From contig JBDSSF010000001.1 in NCBI GenBank assembly GCA_039928925.1, forward strand, positions 267,837 through 331,836: DNA of 64,000 nt, given 5' to 3'. The DNA is from Candidatus Saccharimonadales bacterium. GTDB lineage: Bacteria > Patescibacteriota > Saccharimonadia > Saccharimonadales > Saccharimonadaceae. Position numbers and translations under genes: made by a program. Below are positions 1,398 to 47,809 of the stretch, one piece after another. Below the pieces are notes generated by a model. That model searched no databases. It worked only from the letters and a program-made list of their open reading frames with translations, and was not told the DNA's origin. How positions within the stretch are numbered: position 1 is the first letter of the stretch; every line of letters starts with the position of its first letter.

Positions 1398-1427
1398 GTG
1401 ATCGCAGGTACCAGACTCTACTCCAAA

Positions 1428-3950
1428 TTAAAGTGCCAGTAGCGCTGATATGACACTATCACGGTCTCGTTCAATCAGCTCGACGCGACCTTCTATTTCC
1501 GAAACTCCAATTGTAATAACACGACTCAGAGCTGGAATCTCCTTCTTAGGTGTGAAGAACTCAATATACTGAGCTAGTTGTTCTCGTGTTACAAGACTAC
1601 TTGCACTGTAGCGCGGGTAGTCATCGTAGCTTTTGTCACCAGCAAATGTATCAATGACCCACTGCCAGTTGTCTCGAATCCACTGCCAAGCGGCATCGCG
1701 ACTTTCTCTGCCACGAATGAGATACACGAACCAGCGTGCAGCATCCTGAGGCCGTATAACTAGCGGATCTTTTATTGCTTCAAGAAGTAGCAGTATTTTC
1801 TCTTTAGTTCGAGTTGATGTAATACCAAGACATATATCCTGCTGCAGTTCAGCTGACGATGATGACTTATATGTTGAAAATAGTGCATCAAATATCTTTC
1901 CATCATCATGCCGTACAACACTGCTAATAATAAGGGGTCGAAGCTCTGGGTCAAGATCGATGAGATCATTTGATTCAAATAGAGTCTTTGCTTTTTGAAG
2001 TGCATCGGGAGCTTCACCGTATAGTGTAAGCGCTAAAATCGTTGCACGAAGTTTCGAGTCTTCTTCTGATTCACCTGGTTTTGCATCCCATCCAAGTCGA
2101 GCATATTGCTCTGCCGCCATGTTTGCAGCAAATGTACGCAGCTTACTCTCAGCTATGGGGTTATCATCGACAAACTTTTTTAATTCACCAATAGCCATAC
2201 TCATAATCGTCCATACTGGTTCACTCGTTTCATTTTTATACCCACCGAGGAGGCTAATGAGCTGAATACTCGGAAGAATACCTGCTCTTGCAAGCATCGT
2301 TGATTCATCAAGCAGTTGGATACGATCAAGCATAGATAAGTTACCGGCACTCACCTCGCCGATTAATCGCTGGAGCAAATCGTCACTATAGTGAGTAATA
2401 AAATGAGCCGTATCTTGGTCGTTAAATCTGAGTGGTGTGGTGTGGTGACGCGTCACGACAACCGATCTTTCAGAAAGTATTTCTGGCATCTCGCTACAAG
2501 GAGAGGTGAGCGGAATTGGCCATAGTTTACTCGATGCTTCGTGTGGACCTACAAAGAATTGTTCCTGAGCGAGTGTTACTTGATCACCGTCCTGTGAGAC
2601 ATGGAGAACCGGATAGCCAGACTGTGAAATCCATGTATTCATAAGACCGGCAATATCTTTACCGCTAATCTTTGCTAATGCATTCCATAGGTCATCTTGA
2701 TCAGTGTTGCTGTAGGCATGTTCTTTAAAGTACAGCCCAAGACCAGTACGAAAGTCTTCTTTGCCTACGTAGTGTTCTAGCATGCGTAGGAGCCGAGCGC
2801 CTTTTGCGTAAACGATTGCACCGTCAAATAACGTACTAATCTCATCAGGATGGTTTACATCTACCTGAACAGCCTGTACACCGTCAACACTGTCTCGACG
2901 TAGGGCCATGACAACCTCACCTGATGCGAAATCAAGCCATATATTCCATTCAGGGTAAAGTGCATCAATGGCAATGTACTCCATCAGGGTTGCAAAACTT
3001 TCATTTAGCCAAAGATTATTCCACCACTTCATAGTGACAAGATTACCGAACCACTGATGAGATAGCTCATGCGCAACAACAGTTGCAATATACTGCTTAC
3101 TACTTATTGAAGTTGTCTTAGGATCTGCAAGGAGCGCAATTTCACGATAAGTAATGAGGCCCCAGTTTTCCATTGCACCAGATCCAAAATCTGGAAGTGC
3201 CACATGATCCGACTTAGGTAGCGGATAAGGGACACCGAAATACTCGTCAAAGAAATCAATCGTTCGAGTTGCAACGCCAAGAGCGAAATCAAGGCTTTCT
3301 GGTGGTTGAGCTGGTGTTGCCCAAACATTTACTTCGACGCCACTTTTCGTTGTTGCAGTCTTTTTATGCATTTCACCAACAACGAATGCGAGCAGATACG
3401 TGCTCATTTTTGGCGATGTCTTAAAAGAGGTCACAAGCTGGTCATCAGCCACAACTTGTCTCTCGACAGGCATATTTCCTAAAACTGTAATGTTTTGTTC
3501 GGTCGTGAGAGTGACGTCAAAAGTCGCCTTTGCTTCAGGTTCATCGATACACGGGAATACTTCACGGGTATGATGGCTTTCGAACTGCGTAGCTAGGAGC
3601 TCTTTTTTAACACCATTATATTCGTAGTAGCAGGGATAGAGTCCGTGCATGGGGTCGGTGATCGTACCTGAAAAACCGATAACAAGAATATGTGTTCCAC
3701 TATGGATATCTGGGTGAGTGATATGGAGCTCATCGTTGTCGCTGCTACCAAAATCTGCTTCTTTGCCATCTAGCGTAGCTGATTCAATTGCAAGATCCTT
3801 TGCATGAACGATGATAGTACCGGTACTATCGGGTGACACGCCGTGAATAGTAACTGTCCCACGGAAAGTTCGCTCAGCCCGGCCAAGCATTAATGAAAGG
3901 TCATAATGTGTTGGTGAAAATTGATCAATAAGTCGAGGTACTGTCTGCAT
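1428..3950 (-). CDS. pepN: M1-family aminopeptidase N
   Basis: GAMENWGLITYRE exopeptidase motif and HELSHQWFGNLVT...WLNESFA zinc-binding HEXXH-E motif; 840 aa. Confidence 0.9.
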   Translation of the reverse strand: MQTVPRLIDQFSPTHYDLSLMLGRAERTFRGTVTIHGVSPDSTGTIIVHAKDLAIESATLDGKEADFGSSDNDELHITHPDIHSGTHILVIGFSGTITDPMHGLYPCYYEYNGVKKELLATQFESHHTREVFPCIDEPEAKATFDVTLTTEQNITVLGNMPVERQVVADDQLVTSFKTSPKMSTYLLAFVVGEMHKKTATTKSGVEVNVWATPAQPPESLDFALGVATRTIDFFDEYFGVPYPLPKSDHVALPDFGSGAMENWGLITYREIALLADPKTTSISSKQYIATVVAHELSHQWFGNLVTMKWWNNLWLNESFATLMEYIAIDALYPEWNIWLDFASGEVVMALRRDSVDGVQAVQVDVNHPDEISTLFDGAIVYAKGARLLRMLEHYVGKEDFRTGLGLYFKEHAYSNTDQDDLWNALAKISGKDIAGLMNTWISQSGYPVLHVSQDGDQVTLAQEQFFVGPHEASSKLWPIPLTSPCSEMPEILSERSVVVTRHHTTPLRFNDQDTAHFITHYSDDLLQRLIGEVSAGNLSMLDRIQLLDESTMLARAGILPSIQLISLLGGYKNETSEPVWTIMSMAIGELKKFVDDNPIAESKLRTFAANMAAEQYARLGWDAKPGESEEDSKLRATILALTLYGEAPDALQKAKTLFESNDLIDLDPELRPLIISSVVRHDDGKIFDALFSTYKSSSSAELQQDICLGITSTRTKEKILLLLEAIKDPLVIRPQDAARWFVYLIRGRESRDAAWQWIRDNWQWVIDTFAGDKSYDDYPRYSASSLVTREQLAQYIEFFTPKKEIPALSRVITIGVSEIEGRVELIERDRDSVISALLAL

Positions 3951-3981
3951 ATATCTATTGTAACAAAGGTATACTAGATAT

Positions 3982-4671
3982 ATGAAACAAGGTTACGTAC
4001 TTCGACGGATCATTGGGGTAATTTTTATCCTCGCTACCGTAGCAGCTGTGTCTATTAACCATCCAAATATAATGCAGTCAGTGGCTCCGCCTCAATCCGT
4101 TAGTACGGCAACGGGACCAGCAATAGATGTACTAAATAGTCTTGCGGTTAAAGGTCGCTCTCCAAAAACAGGGTACGCGAGGACGCAATTTGGTGATGGC
4201 TGGACAATATCTAAAGGGTGTGACACTCGGGAGATTATTTTACGTAGGGACATGACGAATGTCACCGCGAATGACAAGTGCCAGGTAATAAGCGGTACGC
4301 TCAATGATCCGTATACTGGTAAAATAATTCTTTTTAGCCGAGGTGAATCATCAAGTAGCGCAGTGCAGATCGATCATGTTGTTGCGCTTAGTAATGCTTG
4401 GCAGACCGGTGCTCAGCAGCTTACTGTGGATCAGCGCGTGTCACTTGCTAATGATCCACTTGAGTTACTTGCCGTTGATGGTCCAACAAATCAACAAAAA
4501 TCTGATGGTGACGCTGCCACATGGTTACCCTCAAATAAGTTATATCGTTGTCAGTATGTCAGTCGTCAGGTTGCAGTGAAATCAAAATACAAACTGTGGG
4601 TGACTCAATCTGAAAAAAATGCGATCACAGCTATTCTCTCAACATGTCCAGGACAAATACTACCCCAGTAA
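3982..4671 (+). CDS. Secreted/membrane-anchored DUF1524 (GmrSD C-terminal, HNH-type) nuclease family protein
   Basis: N-terminal hydrophobic anchor; GCDTREIILRRD, DPYTG, QIDHVVALSNAWQTGA, ANDPLELLAVDGPTNQQKSD, WLPSN, C.Y pattern typical of DUF1524 proteins. Confidence 0.75.
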   Translation: MKQGYVLRRIIGVIFILATVAAVSINHPNIMQSVAPPQSVSTATGPAIDVLNSLAVKGRSPKTGYARTQFGDGWTISKGCDTREIILRRDMTNVTANDKCQVISGTLNDPYTGKIILFSRGESSSSAVQIDHVVALSNAWQTGAQQLTVDQRVSLANDPLELLAVDGPTNQQKSDGDAATWLPSNKLYRCQYVSRQVAVKSKYKLWVTQSEKNAITAILSTCPGQILPQ

Positions 4672-4698
4672 AAAATAAGTGGGCTTTTATATCTGCTT

Positions 4699-5379
4699 TT
4701 AGCGCACCGGTGGAATAATAAGCTGTGGGCCACTTGTTTTCATACTATTCACCTCAGGGTTTGCCATCTTTATCTGTAGCATGCCATCAGGGTGTGTACG
4801 CATACAATCATACAGTGAGCTGTAGTCGTCTACTGTCGGGTCGAGCCAAGTAGCTTCATCTTCAGGGCGTAAGATAACGGGCATTCGTGGGTTGATCGTT
4901 GCCATTTCTATATTTGAAACAACCGTTATGACGGCAAACATACCCCACTGTGTGCCTTCAGGATCTGTCCATGAAGAATAGATACCCGCAATCGAGAATA
5001 AGTCTTGGTCTTTGGGTTTAATATAAAATGGTCTTTTTCCATCTGGCGTTTTTTGCCATTCGTAGTAGCCATTTGATGGTATAAGGCACCGACTATTGCG
5101 GATTGCATGTTGCCAGCTTACTTTTTCAAATACATCTTCAGATTTAGCATCAAATGTTTTATAGCGAAAGACGCCATTTGTATCTTTAGCGCGTTCGGGA
5201 ATGAAGCCCCATTTCATCCGCTTTAGCTCAATAACACCATCTGAATTTGTAAATATAACTGGCGCAAGCTGTGTTGGGCTGATATTATAATTTTTCTTTA
5301 CACCCGGGGGAACGCCGTTAGGGAGCTTAAAACGATCACGTAGGTTTTCAATTTCAAATAGCGTATAGCGTTCGGACAT
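4699..5379 (-). CDS. SOS-response-associated peptidase (SRAP/YedK/HMCES family), with Ser instead of Cys at position 2
   Basis: NYNISPTQ, RCLIPSNGYYEWQK and NPRMPVIL family motifs; N-terminus reads MSERY instead of the canonical MCGR. Confidence 0.8.
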   Translation of the reverse strand: MSERYTLFEIENLRDRFKLPNGVPPGVKKNYNISPTQLAPVIFTNSDGVIELKRMKWGFIPERAKDTNGVFRYKTFDAKSEDVFEKVSWQHAIRNSRCLIPSNGYYEWQKTPDGKRPFYIKPKDQDLFSIAGIYSSWTDPEGTQWGMFAVITVVSNIEMATINPRMPVILRPEDEATWLDPTVDDYSSLYDCMRTHPDGMLQIKMANPEVNSMKTSGPQLIIPPVR

Positions 5380-40201: not shown

Positions 40202-40287
40202 GCACGAGTGGCGGAATGGTAGACGCGCTAGCTTCAGGTGCTAGTGTCCTTTGGGATGTGGAAGTTCGAGTCTTCTCTCGTGTACCA
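40202..40287 (+). tRNA. tRNA-Leu (anticodon CAG), class II, CCA encoded; integration target
   Basis: GCACGAG-TG-GCG-GAATGGTAGA-CGC-G-CTAGC-TTCAGGT-GCTAG-variable arm-GGAAG-TTCGAGT-CTTCT-CTCGTGT-A-CCA. Confidence 0.9.
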
Positions 40288-41895
40288 AACAGAACGAACG
40301 TCGTTTATTGCGACGTTCTTTCTCTTGTCAGAGTAGGTTACGACATCTATCGGTGCGGTCACCATCGTCTGTTTCATAGTCTGAACCGGTTCAAGATATT
40401 TAATGGGTTGAATTCGTATGCTTCCATTAGCAAAGATCATGCGTTCGCCGAGTTTTGACAGTACTTCGCGTTGTTTGATCGGATCGTTACTGTCGAAATC
40501 TGATTTTGCATATTTTGCTAGGTCGAAATACTCACGTGCTTCCTCGTGAACATGTCTTTCAGTATCGTTCGTATTTTCAGATTGTTGTCGTAACATCTTG
40601 AGTCGCTGCTCAATCTTTTTCCTCTCACCGTCATAGAACACCTCATCACATCGTCCAGTGTAGAGCATGCGCTGTAAACCATACATTTCCCCCTCAGTGT
40701 CGTTAAGGGCTTTCTGCTGCGCTGTGCGGACTGTTTCACGCTGTTTTTCTTGCTCATCATTCCATTGGTTTAGGTGTTTTATTGCGAACTGATAAAACTC
40801 ATCACGGATTGTATATCGTGATAGCTCATTTTTTACCATGTCGGATAATTGTTGCGGCTTTAACTTTACTTTATTCGGACAATCAAAATTCTGTCGTTTA
40901 TTGGTGCAATAGATGTATTCAAAAGCCTGCTCATTGCCGTTTTTGTATTTACGTATTTTTCTTGTATAAGTGATCGAACAGCCACATTCCCCACACTGGA
41001 TCATTCCACGATATACACTGAAATAATCAAAACCACGTTCGATCATAGGCCGTTGATGACTTATTTTACTTAATCGCGCCTGTACCTTATCGAATTCAAC
41101 TTTCGTAATCATAGGCAAATGTTGACCTGGATGTAACTCTTTGTTGAAGTTGAGCATGCCATAGTAAAAGGGATTGCGAAACATTGCATATACCCCAGAC
41201 ACGCTTAGTGGAGTTCCGCCCCGCTTCCTTCTTTGGATAGATTTCAATCCTAACTCTTTGTCTGCTTTGCGAGCTATCTCGCTAATTGTCAACGATGGAT
41301 CCATTGCCCATGTCCATAATTGTTTGTATGACTGCCAGCGTTCATCGTCAGGCACAATAATATTTCCACGTAGAGGGTCAGTCGTATTTAAGTACCCCAT
41401 AGGTGCAAGATGCGGTAACCAGCCTTTTGCTACCTTGCTACTCATGCCGCGTTTGATATCACGTTGCAAATCACGGCTAAATTGCGTGGCCATGCCCGCT
41501 TCGACAGTAAACATCAAAACGTTGTCTTCGGGAAAATAATCACGTTCGGCTGTGGCAAACATCTTCAGTCTACCCTCTATAAGAAGTTGTTGAATCAGAC
41601 CCGATTCCAGAGGGTTTCGAGCAATACGGTTTAACTTCCAGCAAAGAATACCATCAACTTTTCCAGACTGAATCATTTCAACTAGTCGGTCGAATTCTTG
41701 TCGCCGGCCGGGTATTTTAGCAGATCTGGATTCGGACAATATGGCGTCATTGGCAATTGTAATGCCACGATGAGATGCGATACTACGCATAATATCAATC
41801 TGGTCACCGATTGACTGAACTTGTCTATCTTCATCTTCAGTAGACTTACGTGCATATATCACAAAACGTAATTTACTTATATCTCTATCATGCAT
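40234..41895 (-). CDS. Large serine recombinase (integrase)
   Basis: Resolvase-type catalytic domain (FVIYARKSTEDEDRQVQSIGDQ, WKLNRIARN), recombinase domain (GWLPHLAPMGY), zinc ribbon (CGECGCS...CTNK...CPNK), C-terminal coiled coil; ATG 41895 preceded by GGAGAA; the 3' end runs antisense into the tRNA. Confidence 0.9.
   Translation of the reverse strand: MHDRDISKLRFVIYARKSTEDEDRQVQSIGDQIDIMRSIASHRGITIANDAILSESRSAKIPGRRQEFDRLVEMIQSGKVDGILCWKLNRIARNPLESGLIQQLLIEGRLKMFATAERDYFPEDNVLMFTVEAGMATQFSRDLQRDIKRGMSSKVAKGWLPHLAPMGYLNTTDPLRGNIIVPDDERWQSYKQLWTWAMDPSLTISEIARKADKELGLKSIQRRKRGGTPLSVSGVYAMFRNPFYYGMLNFNKELHPGQHLPMITKVEFDKVQARLSKISHQRPMIERGFDYFSVYRGMIQCGECGCSITYTRKIRKYKNGNEQAFEYIYCTNKRQNFDCPNKVKLKPQQLSDMVKNELSRYTIRDEFYQFAIKHLNQWNDEQEKQRETVRTAQQKALNDTEGEMYGLQRMLYTGRCDEVFYDGERKKIEQRLKMLRQQSENTNDTERHVHEEAREYFDLAKYAKSDFDSNDPIKQREVLSKLGERMIFANGSIRIQPIKYLEPVQTMKQTMVTAPIDVVTYSDKRKNVAINDVRSVWYTREDSNFHIPKDTST
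40281..40288 (+). repeat. Putative attL core (TGTACCAA)
   Basis: Last 7 nt of the tRNA plus 1 nt; identical octamer at 47763-47770. Confidence 0.4.
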
Positions 41896-42203
41896 GGCTT
41901 TCTCCAACTAAAAAGGCGGCTTGGTTGTTGACACAGTACATAGCACGAAGCCATTTTCCGATACCAAGCCGCCATTTCAGACGGAAAACAAAAGGCTCGC
42001 GCCAGATATGTACAGTGTCAACATGTATTATTGTAATGCAATTATTAATCATTGTTAAGCTCTCGTGGTTGTAATCCAGCGACAAGTGCTATTAGATTTG
42101 ATGCTTCGATGCTCGCGATATCATCGCTCAATTGAACTCCATACTGACGATAGTATATCGCTTGAAATTCTTTTATTGTTTCGTCATTCAACCGCATAAA
42201 ACC

Positions 42204-42845
42204 TTAAAAAGGGATGTCCTTCAGATATTCAGCTATGGGATCATGTGCATCGTTAGCATTAGGTTGCGTATCCAAATTACGATACGCTTCGTCCAAGTCC
42301 TTGGTGTATTGTTCGTGACTAAAATTATCCATCTCTTCGAGGGTGGGAGAATGATCACGTTGCATCTTTTCGTTTCGCATGTACGATGACGTGGGAATAA
42401 GAAAATCGGCTTCGTAATCATGTCGTGCAACTTGTTCTGCACGTTTACGATATTCATTTTGACGTCGTTCTTGTAAGATACGCGAGTCTATTTCAACACC
42501 AGGTTGGTATGATTTGGGTATATACTGACCTTCTTTGGCACGTGCATTTTTCACGTATATACCAAACAAAGCACCTGGATTATTAACTCGCCTGCCTGTT
42601 AAAACGGTATGCAACCAGTATTCTACGCGTTCCGTACCGAATTGATTAATAACCCCACAATACCACGTTCGCCATTGCGCATTATCAAAGGTATCGACCA
42701 ATTTATCAGCCAATTTATCAACTGCTTCAACGTCAGTATTCAATTGGTTTTCTGTGTATGTGGACAGTTGTGTACGATTGCCATTAACCAGGTACTCAAT
42801 TGGTTTATTGGAATCATTTGTATCAGTTTGGTTTACAGTAGGCAT
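42204..42845 (-). CDS. Element ORF, hypothetical (213 aa)
   Basis: ORF track entry; same strand as the integrase; no domain recognised. Confidence 0.5.
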   Translation of the reverse strand: MPTVNQTDTNDSNKPIEYLVNGNRTQLSTYTENQLNTDVEAVDKLADKLVDTFDNAQWRTWYCGVINQFGTERVEYWLHTVLTGRRVNNPGALFGIYVKNARAKEGQYIPKSYQPGVEIDSRILQERRQNEYRKRAEQVARHDYEADFLIPTSSYMRNEKMQRDHSPTLEEMDNFSHEQYTKDLDEAYRNLDTQPNANDAHDPIAEYLKDIPF

Positions 42846-42898
42846 ATGTCAATTGTTGAACATAATGGCCATTTCACCCGTAACGTTTAAAGAGTTGT

Positions 42899-43483
42899 TT
42901 AAATGTTACGATTTTTCGGTTGGTGTCGGTTATAATACAGCCTCATTTCCGCATAATGTGGGTAAAGACGAGCTATCCTTTCGTCGTAAATGTCCGAATC
43001 TTCATCTGTTAATGCGGCATGAATTTGCTTGTATGATCTTCCGGCTCGTAATCCCTTGAAAACAGCATATGTTACGAAAGGGTATGCAGGTTCTTTCGCT
43101 TTAGGTTTTTTAGTACCAGACTTACGTGCGGTTTGTATCGTTCGCCAGGCGCGCATAAGTTGCGCTTCTGTGGCATTGTCATCAAGAACGATGGTTGTCT
43201 TATTTTCTTTGATGTCATAGCCAATTTTTACCCCTTGTTTAGAAGTGCCAACAGGTAGAGTTTGTGCCCAAGCCAAATGACGAAATTCGTCAATACTCAG
43301 TCCCCATCTTTCTGAGAACCCCAGATATATTTCATAAAGTCGTGAATGATCTGTGGGGTGGCGTCGCTTCCACTCATAGACAATCTTCGCATCATAATGA
43401 AACTCAGGGTCGTCATGGACGTTCTGAAGAAAATGCTCGCGGTCAGTTATGGGTTCGTTCCTACCGGTACCTTTTTTTGTCAT
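42899..43483 (-). CDS. Element ORF, hypothetical (194 aa)
   Basis: ORF track entry; first gene of the leftward int-containing gene string. Confidence 0.5.
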   Translation of the reverse strand: MTKKGTGRNEPITDREHFLQNVHDDPEFHYDAKIVYEWKRRHPTDHSRLYEIYLGFSERWGLSIDEFRHLAWAQTLPVGTSKQGVKIGYDIKENKTTIVLDDNATEAQLMRAWRTIQTARKSGTKKPKAKEPAYPFVTYAVFKGLRAGRSYKQIHAALTDEDSDIYDERIARLYPHYAEMRLYYNRHQPKNRNI

Positions 43484-43721
43484 GAATCAATGATACCATC
43501 ACATGTCCTGTATAATGATGCACATGTGGCATGTCCACTTGACCTAAAGCCACGCGCAAGCGAAGGTATGGCCAAAACAAATCCAACGACAAGAAACAGC
43601 TCATCGTCAGAGCCTTCTTGTCGTTGGTTGCACCGGAAACGGTGTAGGCGGCTTAGGCCGTCCTGGCGGTGGGCTTTTTTGTTTGCCTAGCACGGTAGTC
43701 TTAGTCATAAAAGGAGATGGA

Positions 43722-44246
43722 ATGTTTCGACGGAAGAAGACAATTGAAGCAAAGCAAGTAGCGTTTATTTACATGGAAAACTACATGGAAAGGCGCGATG
43801 AAATACTTGGCACACTTGAGATGATATTGGTTAAGCAATTTGGCGAGGACAAAAAGCGGCAAATTTTCTTAAGTCGACAAGCAATGAACTATGTTGAAGC
43901 ATGGATAATTGCATTCGACATAATGCCATTATTCTCTTTGCCTATATTTAAGGGTAAAAGAGTGGACGGTTGGATTTTGCGTCTTGCCAGTGAATATTTA
44001 CAGGTAGAGAAAGATTGGTTGTTTGACCTGGTTAAGGATTTTATTGTAGACATTAATTTTGATAATGACGACAGAACTAAGGCACGGTCACAAGGCTTAT
44101 TCTCCCGTAAAATCAATCAACTTGTATTTAATGTCAAGGGTGATCCGCTATTCATGACCCAGCTTGATATGTTCATAACCGAAAACACGACCCATGAATG
44201 GAAGCTCATAGAGGAGCATTACAAAATCATTCCCACTAATGAATAG
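43722..44246 (+). CDS. Element ORF, hypothetical (174 aa)
   Basis: ATG 43722 preceded by AAAGGAGAtggaATG; the ORF-track start 43683 lacks an RBS. Confidence 0.5.
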   Translation: MFRRKKTIEAKQVAFIYMENYMERRDEILGTLEMILVKQFGEDKKRQIFLSRQAMNYVEAWIIAFDIMPLFSLPIFKGKRVDGWILRLASEYLQVEKDWLFDLVKDFIVDINFDNDDRTKARSQGLFSRKINQLVFNVKGDPLFMTQLDMFITENTTHEWKLIEEHYKIIPTNE

Positions 44247-44256
44247 TAGTAGTGAA

Positions 44257-44610
44257 TTACATCAGATTGATGTTTAACAAAACTGTTTCTGTTGGCTTCT
44301 CTCTCGTGTGAGCTAACATGCTATATGCCTTCATTGCCATCTCGACGGCTTTTAGACGAACTATTGTAGGCTCGTTTTCGTTATGAATAATATCCGTTAA
44401 TCGCTGCATGATTTCATCTGGTTTTATAACCGACAATTTACCGATATTTTCCGATAACCATTCAGGTTGAAGATGTGTCATATTCCGTGCTGTTTGATCC
44501 GAATAGCCTGCTTGTAATGCGCTGCGATATGAATTACCAAATGATGGGCTATCGGGGTTGCTGTACGCTGTAATGTATGTCGTTTGGCGTGGAGTAATGT
44601 GTTTTATCAT
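44257..44610 (-). CDS. Phage small-terminase-like (Terminase_2-type HTH) protein
   Basis: ITPRQTTYITAYSNPDSPSFGNSYRSALQAGYSDQTARNMTHLQPEWLSENI follows the TerS N-terminal pattern (L/ITPkQ..F..Y......GN...A...AGYS..tA). Confidence 0.6.
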   Translation of the reverse strand: MIKHITPRQTTYITAYSNPDSPSFGNSYRSALQAGYSDQTARNMTHLQPEWLSENIGKLSVIKPDEIMQRLTDIIHNENEPTIVRLKAVEMAMKAYSMLAHTREKPTETVLLNINLM

Positions 44611-44654
44611 GGTTTTGGTTTCTCAATCGTTTGTTAAGACGTATTATATATGAT

Positions 44655-45542
44655 ATGACACAAAAAAAGCTATCACAGAAAGAAATGGATGAAATTACTA
44701 ATCGCTCTCACGAAGAAGCAGAGCGCGATTTTAAAGATTTCAAAGAACATATTGCGCGTGGTGAATGCGGAATTTGCGACGAACCTTTGAGTAGCTTTGA
44801 TGAAATGGAGCCATGTATGCATTGGTTATTAATGCCACCGGGTTTTCGAAAAAAACACATGAAATCTGTATTCGAGATATTCACTTATGACCGCATCGAA
44901 GCATATCTTCGATGGTATGCAAATTCACACAGTCCACTTATGAACATAAATGACCTAGTTGAGGAGCACGACGGAACAAAATTGCGCGCTCTCACAATTA
45001 AACATGGTCAACTGGAATGGTCATTTTCATTTGCACAAGGATGCTTGGAAGGTAAAGACGGAAATCATGGACCGCATTACCACTTTCAAATGCGCATTGA
45101 TGGCAAGCCATTCCATAACTATAGTGACCGTCATATCAAAATGAACGACTATGAACTTTGGATGTTCGATATTGATATTGGTCAAAACCCTCAATTCAAA
45201 CGTAACCAAGGCTTTGGAGCCGGAATGCAAAGTACAGTTGACAATATTGAAACTGGCGAACTATTAAAAACCTTCAAATACACCGAAGACTATGAAAATG
45301 CAGCCTTCAATACCAGTACGATTGTCATGGCCGAAGAAGGTAAAACTATTGATGTCGATGAAATAATTGCTATGTATAAAATTGCGCGTGAAACTGGTAC
45401 ACCTGTTCATCAGCAAATAAAAAACCTGAAAAACGTCGCTACAACAAAAGTCATTGTCGAGCCTGGAGAGGGTGTGCCGCATCCTGCTCAGCGCAACCCT
45501 GTGCGTCCAGGCCGTAAGAAAAATAAAGACAAAAAACACTAA
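44655..45542 (+). CDS. Element ORF, hypothetical with Cys/His cluster (295 aa)
   Basis: GECGICDEPLSSFDEMEPCMHW zinc-ribbon-like; HGPHYHFQ; basic C-terminal tail. Confidence 0.5.
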   Translation: MTQKKLSQKEMDEITNRSHEEAERDFKDFKEHIARGECGICDEPLSSFDEMEPCMHWLLMPPGFRKKHMKSVFEIFTYDRIEAYLRWYANSHSPLMNINDLVEEHDGTKLRALTIKHGQLEWSFSFAQGCLEGKDGNHGPHYHFQMRIDGKPFHNYSDRHIKMNDYELWMFDIDIGQNPQFKRNQGFGAGMQSTVDNIETGELLKTFKYTEDYENAAFNTSTIVMAEEGKTIDVDEIIAMYKIARETGTPVHQQIKNLKNVATTKVIVEPGEGVPHPAQRNPVRPGRKKNKDKKH

Positions 45543-45682
45543 GCTAGGGATCCGTAACGGCTAACTCACTCGTTCGAGTATAGTTTTATCATTGTCTGTG
45601 TTTCATTCGGCAGTACACACAACAAACAGGAACTGTATGATTTGAGAATATCTGAATAATCGAAGTGTGGGATAATAGGCGC

Positions 45683-46600
45683 ATGAGAATCGAGAGAACA
45701 AAAGCCAAAGAGAACCAAATACCCACAAGGCAATACCCGTCCTATACTGCCGATGGTAAAGTTCGTCGAATTACACTTGGAAAATCTTCATTCACAGTTC
45801 CATATCGATGGACTTACTACCAGTATTTGATACTTGGGGTGTATACAATGGTTTTTTCTAAGGAGTTTTTGAACGACGACAATAATGACTCTGTATTACG
45901 AAAGATGTACAAAGCACATATTGACAAAGTCCAGTCTGAGACAAGCCTCTTTATACTAACCAATGCGGATGCATACCTCATATATCTGGCATCGGATCTG
46001 GAGCAGCTGGTTGCAAAAAATTCTTTACCAGAAGGAATTATTAAAAGGTTAAGGTCTACTAATGATGGTGAGATGAGGGGTGCTATATATGAAATCACTA
46101 TGGCTGCTGCGGTAACGCGCACAGGTTATAAGATTGATTGGCTAACTGAACCATCCAGACCTGAATTTACCGCATATGGGAAAGAGGTACTTATTGATTT
46201 TGAAGCAAAGCGGCGTGACAGGACGGGCAGAATTAACTACGACTTGGAGATTGAAGTGAGAGCAATCGAAAAAAATCTCAGAAAAGCGTTAAAGAAAAAG
46301 ACCATGAATCAGTATGTGATTTTTATGGATACAGATTTACCTCCTGGACCCGCACAAAAATATAATGAAATCATGGAAGCAATGATGAAAAAGATTGGCT
46401 TACATGAACAAAAGAAAATAGTAGTTGTTACAACCAACACCGGATATGAACATGACCCAACTGTTACCGACTTTGGCAAAAATTCAGTAGCAATGTACAA
46501 ATCTGATGACGGAGTAAACTTGCATGAAGTGAAGAAAATAATATTACAGATGCACGCAAAATTACCAAAAGATGCCTCTTCAAGCGGATGGCCAATATAA
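45683..46600 (+). CDS. Element cargo ORF with PD-(D/E)xK-like motif (putative nuclease); start uncertain (45665/45683/45848)
   Basis: GAIYEITMAAAV helix followed by PEFTAYGKEVLIDFEAKRR (PE-x12-EAK); GATAAT-N6-ATG at 45683; stop abuts the next ATG. Confidence 0.45.
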   Translation: MRIERTKAKENQIPTRQYPSYTADGKVRRITLGKSSFTVPYRWTYYQYLILGVYTMVFSKEFLNDDNNDSVLRKMYKAHIDKVQSETSLFILTNADAYLIYLASDLEQLVAKNSLPEGIIKRLRSTNDGEMRGAIYEITMAAAVTRTGYKIDWLTEPSRPEFTAYGKEVLIDFEAKRRDRTGRINYDLEIEVRAIEKNLRKALKKKTMNQYVIFMDTDLPPGPAQKYNEIMEAMMKKIGLHEQKKIVVVTTNTGYEHDPTVTDFGKNSVAMYKSDDGVNLHEVKKIILQMHAKLPKDASSSGWPI

Positions 46601-47608
46601 ATGACAAAAGACAGATCGGACAAATCAAAATCACGGCATCACTATGTTCAAAAAGCATACCTGAATGGATTTGCTGTAAACGAAAAAATTGATGTAATTA
46701 ATCGTGAAGATGGTACCGTAAGGATAACTCAACGTACATCCTCAGTTGCAAATGAAAGAGGCTTATATACGATACAGCGAGAAAATGGCGACAAGGACGG
46801 AATACTTGAAGATATATTTGCCGAAAAAGTGGAATCACCAGCAATAAAAATCATAAGAAACATGACATCAGTACTACCTTATGTTCCACGACAGAATGAA
46901 CGTCAAGTAATCGCGGAATATATGGCGTTACAGTATCTACGTACGCCAGAGGCTAAGCGACGATTTGAAGCGGAGGCGGGAAGATTTGAAGCCATTGAAA
47001 TATTTAATATGGCCAATGATTCTAAAAAGGTAGGTGTTTATCTCGGTAAAAAAGGTGAAAAAAATGATAATGATTCGGTTGCTGCATATCGTGACAAGGT
47101 CATTAAATCACTTCACGACAACGAGATAATTCCGAACAGTACGATGTGGTATCGACAGATAATAAAGAGTCTACCGCATATTGCAGATATTATGACTGCA
47201 AGATACGGTTGGCATCTCCTGTATTATGACGATCCTGTTTTACTGACAGGTGATCATCCTGTAATACTTCGACAGATAAGGGAAAGCTGGATGGGTACTG
47301 GGTTTATGAATGCGGATGAAATAATATTTCCGTTAAATGTTCGATACGCACTTTTGCTTTCCACTGACTTTGGAATCAAAGAGCAGGTTAACACAAACGC
47401 CAACCCATCAACTGCGAAAATGATAAATTGGTATGTAAAGCGCAATAGCTATATGGAAGTATATTCGCATCCATCTCTTACGAGTGAATATGCTGGTGAG
47501 GCACTAGGTCAAAAGATTCTCACAGAAACTACAGGCATGGATATGCAAGAAATTGGATTTTTGAATAACTACAGTGGGGTTTTGTTACGCAAAAAACCAA
47601 TGAGATAG
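46601..47608 (+). CDS. DUF4238 domain protein
   Basis: N-terminal HHYVQKAYLNGFA, later QYLRTPEAKRRFE, WHLLYYDDPVLLTGDHPVIL, IIFPLNVRYALLL: the characteristic DUF4238 blocks. Confidence 0.8.
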   Translation: MTKDRSDKSKSRHHYVQKAYLNGFAVNEKIDVINREDGTVRITQRTSSVANERGLYTIQRENGDKDGILEDIFAEKVESPAIKIIRNMTSVLPYVPRQNERQVIAEYMALQYLRTPEAKRRFEAEAGRFEAIEIFNMANDSKKVGVYLGKKGEKNDNDSVAAYRDKVIKSLHDNEIIPNSTMWYRQIIKSLPHIADIMTARYGWHLLYYDDPVLLTGDHPVILRQIRESWMGTGFMNADEIIFPLNVRYALLLSTDFGIKEQVNTNANPSTAKMINWYVKRNSYMEVYSHPSLTSEYAGEALGQKILTETTGMDMQEIGFLNNYSGVLLRKKPMR

Positions 47609-47762
47609 TAGGTTCTAATGCTTCGCTATATTATGTATTTGAATATGGAACCTAGCAGCCAAGCTGGAACGGGGGTGGGTAGATCAAACTGTAATGTCTA
47701 TACCAACACCTGTGAATTGATGATGTCGTTGTGAATGCAGGTTACAACTTCTTGCACGGTGC

Positions 47763-47770
47763 TGTACCAA
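47763..47770 (+). repeat. Putative attR core (TGTACCAA)
   Basis: Identical to 40281-40288. Confidence 0.4.
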
Positions 47771-47809
47771 TAAAAACAGAGGCCTAGCGGTCTCCTTTTT
47801 TATTGGTAC
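47764..47809. terminator. Long bidirectional terminator, probably the original tRNA-Leu terminator
   Basis: GTACCAATAAAAA-CA-GAGGCC-TAGC-GGTCTC-C-TTTTTTATTGGTAC. Confidence 0.6.

Follow-up and report, generated by a model that had tools for sequence, protein, structure and literature searches.

A DUF4238 gene directly coupled to a predicted PD-(D/E)xK nuclease gene beside tRNA-Leu(CAG) in a probable Saccharibacteria genome: two-gene system or stacked defence-type genes?

When the stop codon of one gene directly abuts the start codon of the next, do the two products work only together, or have two independent genes come to be expressed as one unit? The question is raised by a pair of genes in a probable Saccharibacteria genome (Candidatus Saccharimonadales bacterium, contig JBDSSF010000001.1, positions 267,837 to 331,836), analysed here as one stretch of 64,000 nucleotides (nt) that is referred to as the window. 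The first open reading frame (ORF1) encodes a protein with a predicted PD-(D/E)xK nuclease fold, the second (ORF2) a DUF4238 protein, and a third gene of the same orientation (ORF0) lies upstream of both. A sequence-only reading of the locus had proposed that ORF1 and ORF2 form a two-gene defence module. The DUF4238 assignment, the nuclease-type core and the defence-rich contexts on which that proposal drew were upheld by the present analysis; conservation of the pairing and novelty of the defence call were not. With a confidence somewhat above even, we regard ORF1 and ORF2 as two defence-type genes, each mobile on its own, that are stacked and transcribed together, and not as a new obligate two-gene system.

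The junction between the two genes was found as first described. The ORF1 stop codon TAA (46598-46600) lies immediately 5' of the ORF2 ATG (46601), the two frames are co-oriented, and the peptides that had been quoted from them (GAIYEITMAAAV, PEFTAYGKEVLIDFEAKRR, HHYVQKAYLNGF, GDHPVIL and FPLN) are all present. The longest ORF1 reading frame opens at GTG 45665, and the form called in databases, of 305 amino acids (aa), begins at ATG 45683. We place the start at 45683 because the homologue P0002, which is 72% identical to ORF1, has the same length and a matching N-terminus (MRIERTKAKENQIP versus MEIERKKAKENQIP). In the related locus L010, the corresponding junction is an ATGA overlap, so that the tight arrangement is kept. 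Comparison with the L010 orthologues gave proportions of non-synonymous and synonymous differences (pN and pS) of 0.18 and 0.82 for ORF1 and of 0.22 and 0.81 for ORF2, the synonymous sites being saturated in both cases. Purifying selection acts on both ORFs, and the low pN against a saturated pS indicates that they are real genes and not chance ORFs. Both would be read as one transcription unit between a promoter-like site and a terminator-like hairpin, each of which is a bare consensus match (Table 1). A 22-nt imperfect direct repeat (18 of 22 positions matching) occurs at 44601-44622 and 45583-45604, directly 5' of the promoter-like sites of ORF0 and ORF1, either as a shared operator or by chance.

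ORF2 matches Pfam PF14022 (DUF4238) with E=2.4e-33 and 116.2 bits (cut-off 27) over profile positions 1-279 of 281, in agreement with the sequence-only reading. Its ~20 homologues, which are 35-51% identical and include one from a Candidatus Saccharibacteria bacterium, all carry PF14022. A lone DUF4238 protein of the P2 hotspot strongly protects Escherichia coli from T7 (Rousset 2022; PMC9122126), later defence-system surveys list DUF4238 as a stand-alone system, and DUF4238 domains are also present in active TIR systems of E. coli (PMC11350192). A defence role for DUF4238 is therefore not new, since the family has already been described as a stand-alone anti-phage system (PMC9122126). Like the protein of Rousset (2022), ORF2 corresponds to PF14022 over nearly its whole length and lies in a variable, mobile-element-associated locus near defence-type genes. 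It differs in its host, a probable Saccharibacteria (Patescibacteria) bacterium instead of E. coli, and in its architecture, as it is not a single gene but is translationally coupled to an upstream gene for a nuclease-fold protein.

The AlphaFold2 (AF2) model of ORF2, built from 20 sequences, has a predicted local distance difference test score (pLDDT) of 81. A fold comparison of the model with the PDB gave nothing better than E=0.7 and, with no meaningful fold match, the structure says nothing on mechanism. Conserved residues include H13-H14, R35, E70, E78, R114, D218-H219-P220, N237 and E240, among which H13-H14, D218-H219 and E240 suggest a metal-dependent enzyme. An identification of DUF4238 with the DzbA component of Dazbog was rejected, as the literature gives Dazbog DUF262 and not DUF4238. 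A 455-aa gene that overlaps a Streptomyces plasmid DUF4238 gene showed no relation to ORF0 or ORF1; by eye, the C-terminus of its product looks integrase-like.

Co-occurrence of the two families was tested by tblastn with the ORF1 and ORF2 proteins over 29 loci (Table 1). Both were found together only in L010. Nine informative contexts could be counted for the ORF1 family and nine for the ORF2 clade, with the window included among the partnered ones, and a partner was present in two of the nine in each case, namely in the window and in L010. These two loci are not independent. In L010, tRNA-Leu(CAG) (288-374) is followed by a 3' fragment of dinB and then by the ORF1-DUF4238 pair, in a block ~290 nt from the tRNA gene that is accompanied by neither a recombinase gene nor ORF0. 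The window has the same tRNA gene and the same dinB remnant, of which the last ~19 codons are kept (45582-45638); its peptide SFIIVCVSFGSTHNKQELY aligns to NFILDRVPFGSTRDMQELY of L010, and the longer L010 remnant (about 470-638) matches the C-terminus of the L027 DinB protein (E=8e-9). The remnant is recognisable as protein despite the saturated synonymous sites of the neighbouring genes, and its overlap with the promoter-like site may explain why it has been retained. Judged by these landmarks, the block of dinB remnant, ORF1 and ORF2 beside tRNA-Leu(CAG) is orthologous in the window and L010, and the pair therefore has a single origin. With two of nine contexts for each family, both from orthologous loci, a conserved two-gene system is not borne out.

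Table 1. Features of the window, and contexts of ORF1 and ORF2 relatives in other loci (coordinates of the latter refer to the locus named).
Feature or locus	Position	Strand	Description
tRNA-Leu(CAG)	40202-40287	+	found also ahead of the L010 pair and of a solitary DUF4238 gene in L028
Large serine recombinase	40234-41907	-	Pfam Resolvase, Recombinase, Zn_ribbon_recom
ORF0	44655-45542	+	295 aa, unannotated; zinc-ribbon-like CxxC...CxH and invariant PHYHFQM
dinB (Y-family polymerase) 3' remnant	45582-45659	+	overlaps promoter-like site; left edge of the block common to L010
Promoter-like site	45614-45641	+	precedes ORF1; bare consensus match of hexamers
ORF1	45683-46600	+	305 aa, ATG start; predicted PD-(D/E)xK-fold protein without annotation
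ORF1 candidate catalytic residues	E137 46091-46093; E161 46163-46165; E174 46202-46204; K176 46208-46210	+	conserved motif, predicted
ORF2	46601-47608	+	335 aa; DUF4238 protein, start directly against the ORF1 stop
Terminator-like hairpin and T-run	47779-47804	+	3' of ORF2, just 5' of SpoU methylase gene; bare consensus match
L001	6471-8735		ORF1 homologue (305 aa from start 7818) 7 nt after cyclase gene (SMODS and AGS_C) of the type of the cyclic oligonucleotide-based anti-phage signalling system (CBASS)
L002-6			ORF1 homologue stand-alone, adjoining ParB-methyltransferase gene; TIR gene nearby
L007-9, L022			ORF1 homologue stand-alone
L010			ORF1 homologue 72% identical, then DUF4238 65% identical to ORF2; ATGA overlap
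L011-14			DUF4238 start overlapped 4 nt by ORF0 homologue; PLD nuclease two genes upstream
L015			DUF4238 with genes for Ltp, AbiLi and ThsB_TIR; followed after 40 nt by a serine recombinase gene
L016-19			DUF4238 with HaeIII restriction-modification system and recombinase
L020			ORF1 homologue 36 nt after ORF0 homologue
L021 (Saccharibacteria metagenome-assembled genome)			ORF1 homologue stand-alone, before beta-flower protein gene
L023			ORF1 homologue between ftsK and PDC-S46 gene (E=1e-188)
L025-26			DUF4238 with recombinase
L027			SRAP (SOS-response-associated peptidase) gene overlaps DUF4238 start by 11 nt; dinB nearby
L028			lone DUF4238 gene 160 nt after tRNA-Leu(CAG)
L029			DUF4238 in conjugative element with MzaB and Z1 genes

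Away from the orthologous pair, members of the ORF2 clade stand alone in L015, L016-19, L025-26, L028 and L029. Defence-rich, mobile neighbourhoods, which had been anticipated for the pair, are supported across loci for both families. The occurrence of each family without the other in such contexts, the published protection of E. coli by a lone DUF4238 protein (PMC9122126) and the purifying selection on both genes are in favour of the stacked-gene reading. In L027, the SRAP overlap and an intact dinB (region 1419-5005) form a second link of DUF4238 to DNA-damage genes.

ORF1 gave no match in searches of Pfam, NCBIfam and PHROG. Its AF2 model (pLDDT 80, predicted template modelling score 0.85) has a core with pLDDT 83-95 in which helix 128-146, strands 150-153, 162-165 and 171-176, helix 188-203 and strand 210-216 follow one another as alpha-beta-beta-beta-alpha-beta, the order of the restriction-endonuclease core. 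Candidate catalytic residues fall at matching places, with E137 on helix 128-146, P160-E161 at strand 162-165 and E174-x-K176 within strand 171-176. All are invariant across 15 ORF1-family members; in an alignment of 42 sequences that includes distant relatives, E137, E174 and K176 are invariant and E161 nearly so (at least 90%). The top Foldseek matches in the PDB (HindIII, FokI, Hjc, RecU, DdmD and LmuA at E=0.01-0.5; also BstEII, N.BspD6I, XisH and McrBC) are nearly all PD-(D/E)xK proteins, and the named matches in the viral structure library BFVD are mostly restriction endonucleases, VRR-NUC proteins and resolvases. Predicted topology, conserved residues and fold matches, three weak but concordant lines of evidence, make a PD-(D/E)xK fold well supported, as the sequence-only reading had suggested from the motif, and we infer nuclease activity. 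Profile searches with ORF1 against PDB sequences returned only noise (ribosomal protein S7, E=0.29; a hypothetical protein, E=0.2). A PADLOC match to HEC-02B was set aside as too weak (E=0.0067 over 42 residues).

ORF1 thus shares a predicted core and the E137...P160-E161...E174-x-K176 motif with PD-(D/E)xK defence nucleases such as HindIII, the FokI cleavage domain, Hjc/RecU, LmuA and DdmD domains. It differs from them in having no sequence-level match to solved structures or to Pfam or NCBIfam models, and in carrying additional parts: residues 1-125 form an N-terminal beta-hairpin and a helical region outside the core, and the C-terminal part is conserved (D216-x-D218-PP, N252-G-Y and GKNS). 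ORF1 is also without a methyltransferase partner.

The ORF1 family is small. A word-indexed search of 5.8 billion proteins found 5 clusters. In an exhaustive search of 1.84 billion representatives, 13 matched the family at E<1e-30, and the wider superfamily numbers 676 proteins, which have mainly residues 100-225 in common. Among the distant relatives, which have this core in common, are proteins of PADLOC PDC-S01, a candidate system only, and SEC-C proteins (E ~1e-10 to 1e-19 against the ORF1 profile). PDC-S01 is matched by 7 of the 42 aligned relatives, one distant relative matching the C-terminal part of the model with E=5.9e-5, but not by ORF1 itself. An N-terminal SEC-C zinc motif precedes the nuclease-like core in 33 of the 148 (~22%) distant relatives listed (P0037-P0173) and is lacking in ORF1. 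Matches of distant relatives to the PADLOC models E1-E2, E2 and PDC-S12 were rejected, as they are due solely to this SEC-C motif. No Pfam family covers the core common to P0037-P0173.

One context bears on how an ORF1-type protein might be controlled. In L001, whose contig is conjugative-element-like, an ORF1 homologue (42-46% identical) occupies the usual effector position of a type I CBASS behind a CD-NTase-type cyclase (PADLOC Cyclase, E=2e-25), which by analogy makes the ORF1 family a possible CBASS effector in that locus. The run also encodes a transmembrane protein, which could be the effector instead. The window differs from type I CBASS in that no cyclase was found among the eight proteins scanned (40234-47608), and no cyclic-nucleotide sensor domain (e.g. 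SAVED, STING) was detected in ORF1.

ORF0, which the earlier reading had overlooked, adds a third gene to the co-oriented run. Its family comprises at least 141 protein clusters, all lacking a Pfam domain, and has invariant C38-x2-C41, C54-x-H56 and P-H-Y-H-F-Q-M motifs. By tblastn, an 80%-identical copy was found 36 nt upstream of the L020 ORF1 homologue, whereas in L011-L014 the copy is 60% identical and shares 4 nt with the start of DUF4238; a 288-aa gene in L011 that had been taken for an unrelated DUF4238 partner proved to be this ORF0 homologue. Four combinations of the three genes are thus seen: 0-1-2 in the window, 0-1 in L020, 0-2 in L011 and 1-2 in L010. Between the window and L020, the ORF0 proteins are 80% identical and the ORF1 proteins only 46%, and DNA homology is restricted to the two coding regions (76% for ORF0, 66% for ORF1), stopping at the gene borders. 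On these sequence comparisons, the relationship of the two loci is one of gene-by-gene mosaicism, which also speaks for separately mobile genes. In L011 (3115-6008), ORF0 and DUF4238 end a tight co-oriented run that starts with a 106-aa gene, a 160-aa PLD nuclease gene and a 67-aa gene; the PLD nuclease is MkoC-like (PADLOC E=4e-12), whereas the window has a PD-(D/E)xK protein, at a different position in the run.

ORF0 is also encoded by 13 IMG/VR viral contigs, in most of them as a solitary gene adjoining tail genes or integrases, and could be a defence gene or a 'moron' in its own right. Neither ORF1 nor the ORF2 clade gave a match in viral-contig scans, and a tblastn search of a phage collection with ORF1, ORF2 and one ORF0 homologue was equally negative. 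One of the 13 contigs, which is P2-like prophage DNA (L031; 57% GC, P2-type gpD gene), resembles the window in carrying DUF4238 together with an ORF0 homologue, its DUF4238 gene (Pfam E=7.7e-27) being placed two genes ahead of ORF0. Megablast with L031 4000-7000 as query gave nothing in E. coli genomes.

The pair had further been described as cargo at the integrase-distal end of an element. The right boundary of such an element could not be shown beyond ORF2, and a search at the right end for a direct repeat of an attachment (att) site or a partial tRNA copy found none, the only match being the 8-nt TGTACCAA. The status of the pair as cargo is doubtful because L010 carries the same block near tRNA-Leu(CAG) without a recombinase. 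The segment from 40345 to ~45580, present in the window and not in L010, contains the recombinase gene, several unknown genes, a LOOT RNA, a weakly TerS-like gene and ORF0. The simplest reading of these sequences is that a recombinase element entered between the tRNA gene and a pair already in place; conceivably, L010 has instead undergone a deletion. Related recombinase genes lie 40 nt from DUF4238 in L015, L016 and L025, which argues against a purely accidental neighbourhood.

The last recombinase codons run antisense into tRNA-Leu(CAG) and its conserved flank (40202-40344). Because the tRNA and flank (40208-40344) are conserved with L028, where no recombinase sits, the recombinase seems to acquire, on integration, a C-terminal tail that is encoded by the host. 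Before the terminator-like hairpin and the SpoU gene, a 44-nt stretch (47735-47776) is 86% identical to L028 7081-7124, the far end of the L028 variable region, and may mark the right edge of a variable islet downstream of tRNA-Leu(CAG). The LOOT RNA (Rfam RF03000; 43541-43662, + strand) scores 63 bits against a gathering score of 46.4 and lies inside the recombinase element between two unknown genes; a literature search on its function found nothing. An ORF of 117 aa on the - strand (44257-44610) has a weak small-terminase likeness (PHROG 51, E=8.5e-5; Pfam Terminase_2 below threshold). The related elements of L015 and L002 also have a small terminase-like gene, adjoining a ParB-methyltransferase gene. 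The recombinase element may be satellite-like.

Several observations weigh against the stacked-gene reading. On the side of the individual proteins, the fold matches of ORF1 are weak, the best in the PDB reaching E=0.011 (probability 0.92) with none at or below 0.001, and the best in BFVD E=0.0025. ORF2 is remote from the other DUF4238 proteins compared, with ~25% identity to the plasmid-borne ones that made up the comparison set. A PADLOC scan of ORF2 gave no match, a silence that means little because the DUF4238 gene of L031 also goes unmatched. On the side of the pair, divergence between the window and L010 is concordant for ORF1 and ORF2 (72% and 65% identity), as for co-evolving partners, and the tight junction (TAA-ATG here, ATGA in L010) survives saturating synonymous divergence, as that of a functional pair would. 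ORF2-clade genes, moreover, often have an overlapping upstream gene (ORF0 in L011, SRAP in L027), so that partners may be interchangeable. The concordant divergence and the preserved junction would be expected of an obligate two-component defence system, in which DUF4238 would sense infection and activate or guide the ORF1 nuclease, or the reverse, neither working alone in this lineage. Such a system is also in keeping with the joining of DUF4238 to other effector-type modules, for example in the TIR systems of E. coli (PMC11350192), with the PLD nuclease in the ORF0-DUF4238 run of L011, and with the effector position of the L001 homologue, by which the ORF1 family may be a partner-activated effector. 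We nevertheless consider it doubtful, in view of the two partnered contexts in nine for either family, their one origin, the stand-alone ORF1 homologues of several loci and the sufficiency of a DUF4238 protein alone in E. coli (PMC9122126). Rather less probable still is a modular arrangement in which DUF4238 would be a defence core with interchangeable, translationally coupled partners (ORF1 here, ORF0 with the PLD nuclease in L011, SRAP in L027, TIR in E. coli), and ORF0, ORF1 and DUF4238 an undescribed three-part toolkit of Patescibacteria that recombines pairwise, giving the 0-1-2, 0-1, 0-2 and 1-2 combinations.

Readings in which the pair does not serve defence fare worse. The dinB remnant that immediately precedes ORF1 in the two orthologous loci, and the DNA-damage genes beside DUF4238 in L027, could point to a repair neighbourhood in which a nuclease and a DUF4238 enzyme act on damaged DNA. 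We think this improbable: the dinB copy is truncated, which suggests a site of insertion and not a partner in an operon, the contexts elsewhere are for the most part mobile or of defence type, a family with 13 representatives among 1.84 billion is too sporadic for a housekeeping role, and the anti-phage activity of DUF4238 is published (PMC9122126). A toxin-antitoxin or addiction module, with ORF1 as nuclease toxin and the coupled DUF4238 protein as antidote (or the reverse) stabilising the island, would account for the bicistronic, translationally coupled layout and for a nuclease-type first gene. It is very unlikely, as both families occur alone in several genomes, which would not be tolerable for a toxin in need of its antidote; both proteins are also large (305 and 335 aa), and the DUF4238 protein is itself active in defence elsewhere (PMC9122126).

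Under the stacked-gene reading that we prefer, the bicistronic ORF1-ORF2 cassette and the upstream ORF0 would form a small defence islet downstream of tRNA-Leu(CAG), with ORF0 as a possible third cargo gene. ORF2 would act as an autonomous anti-phage protein, like the single-gene DUF4238 of P2-like prophages. ORF1 would be a Mg2+-dependent endonuclease using E137, E161, E174 and K176 to cut invading DNA or, on infection, host DNA, and would work on its own, as type IV restriction enzymes do, or on activation by a partner. Protection by the two proteins would then be additive and not interdependent, the coupling reflecting co-expression in a cargo hotspot and not an obligate complex.

What would be new at this locus is the unusual coupled arrangement, in a probable Saccharibacteria genome, of a known defence family with an unannotated family of nuclease type. 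DUF4238 is a validated anti-phage protein for which no structural relative was found in the PDB here, and an operon that couples it to a recognisable nuclease-type gene, together with the recurrent ORF0, offers concrete partners for work on its mode of action. The practical gain would be modest unless ORF1 and ORF2 prove to be interdependent. If active, the ORF1 and ORF0 families (13 and at least 141 sequence clusters, respectively) would be additions to catalogues of defence genes. If the assignment of the host to Saccharibacteria, drawn from the source names of the homologues, is right, the locus represents a candidate defence islet of small-genome bacteria, in which at least three cargo genes are stacked beside one tRNA gene.

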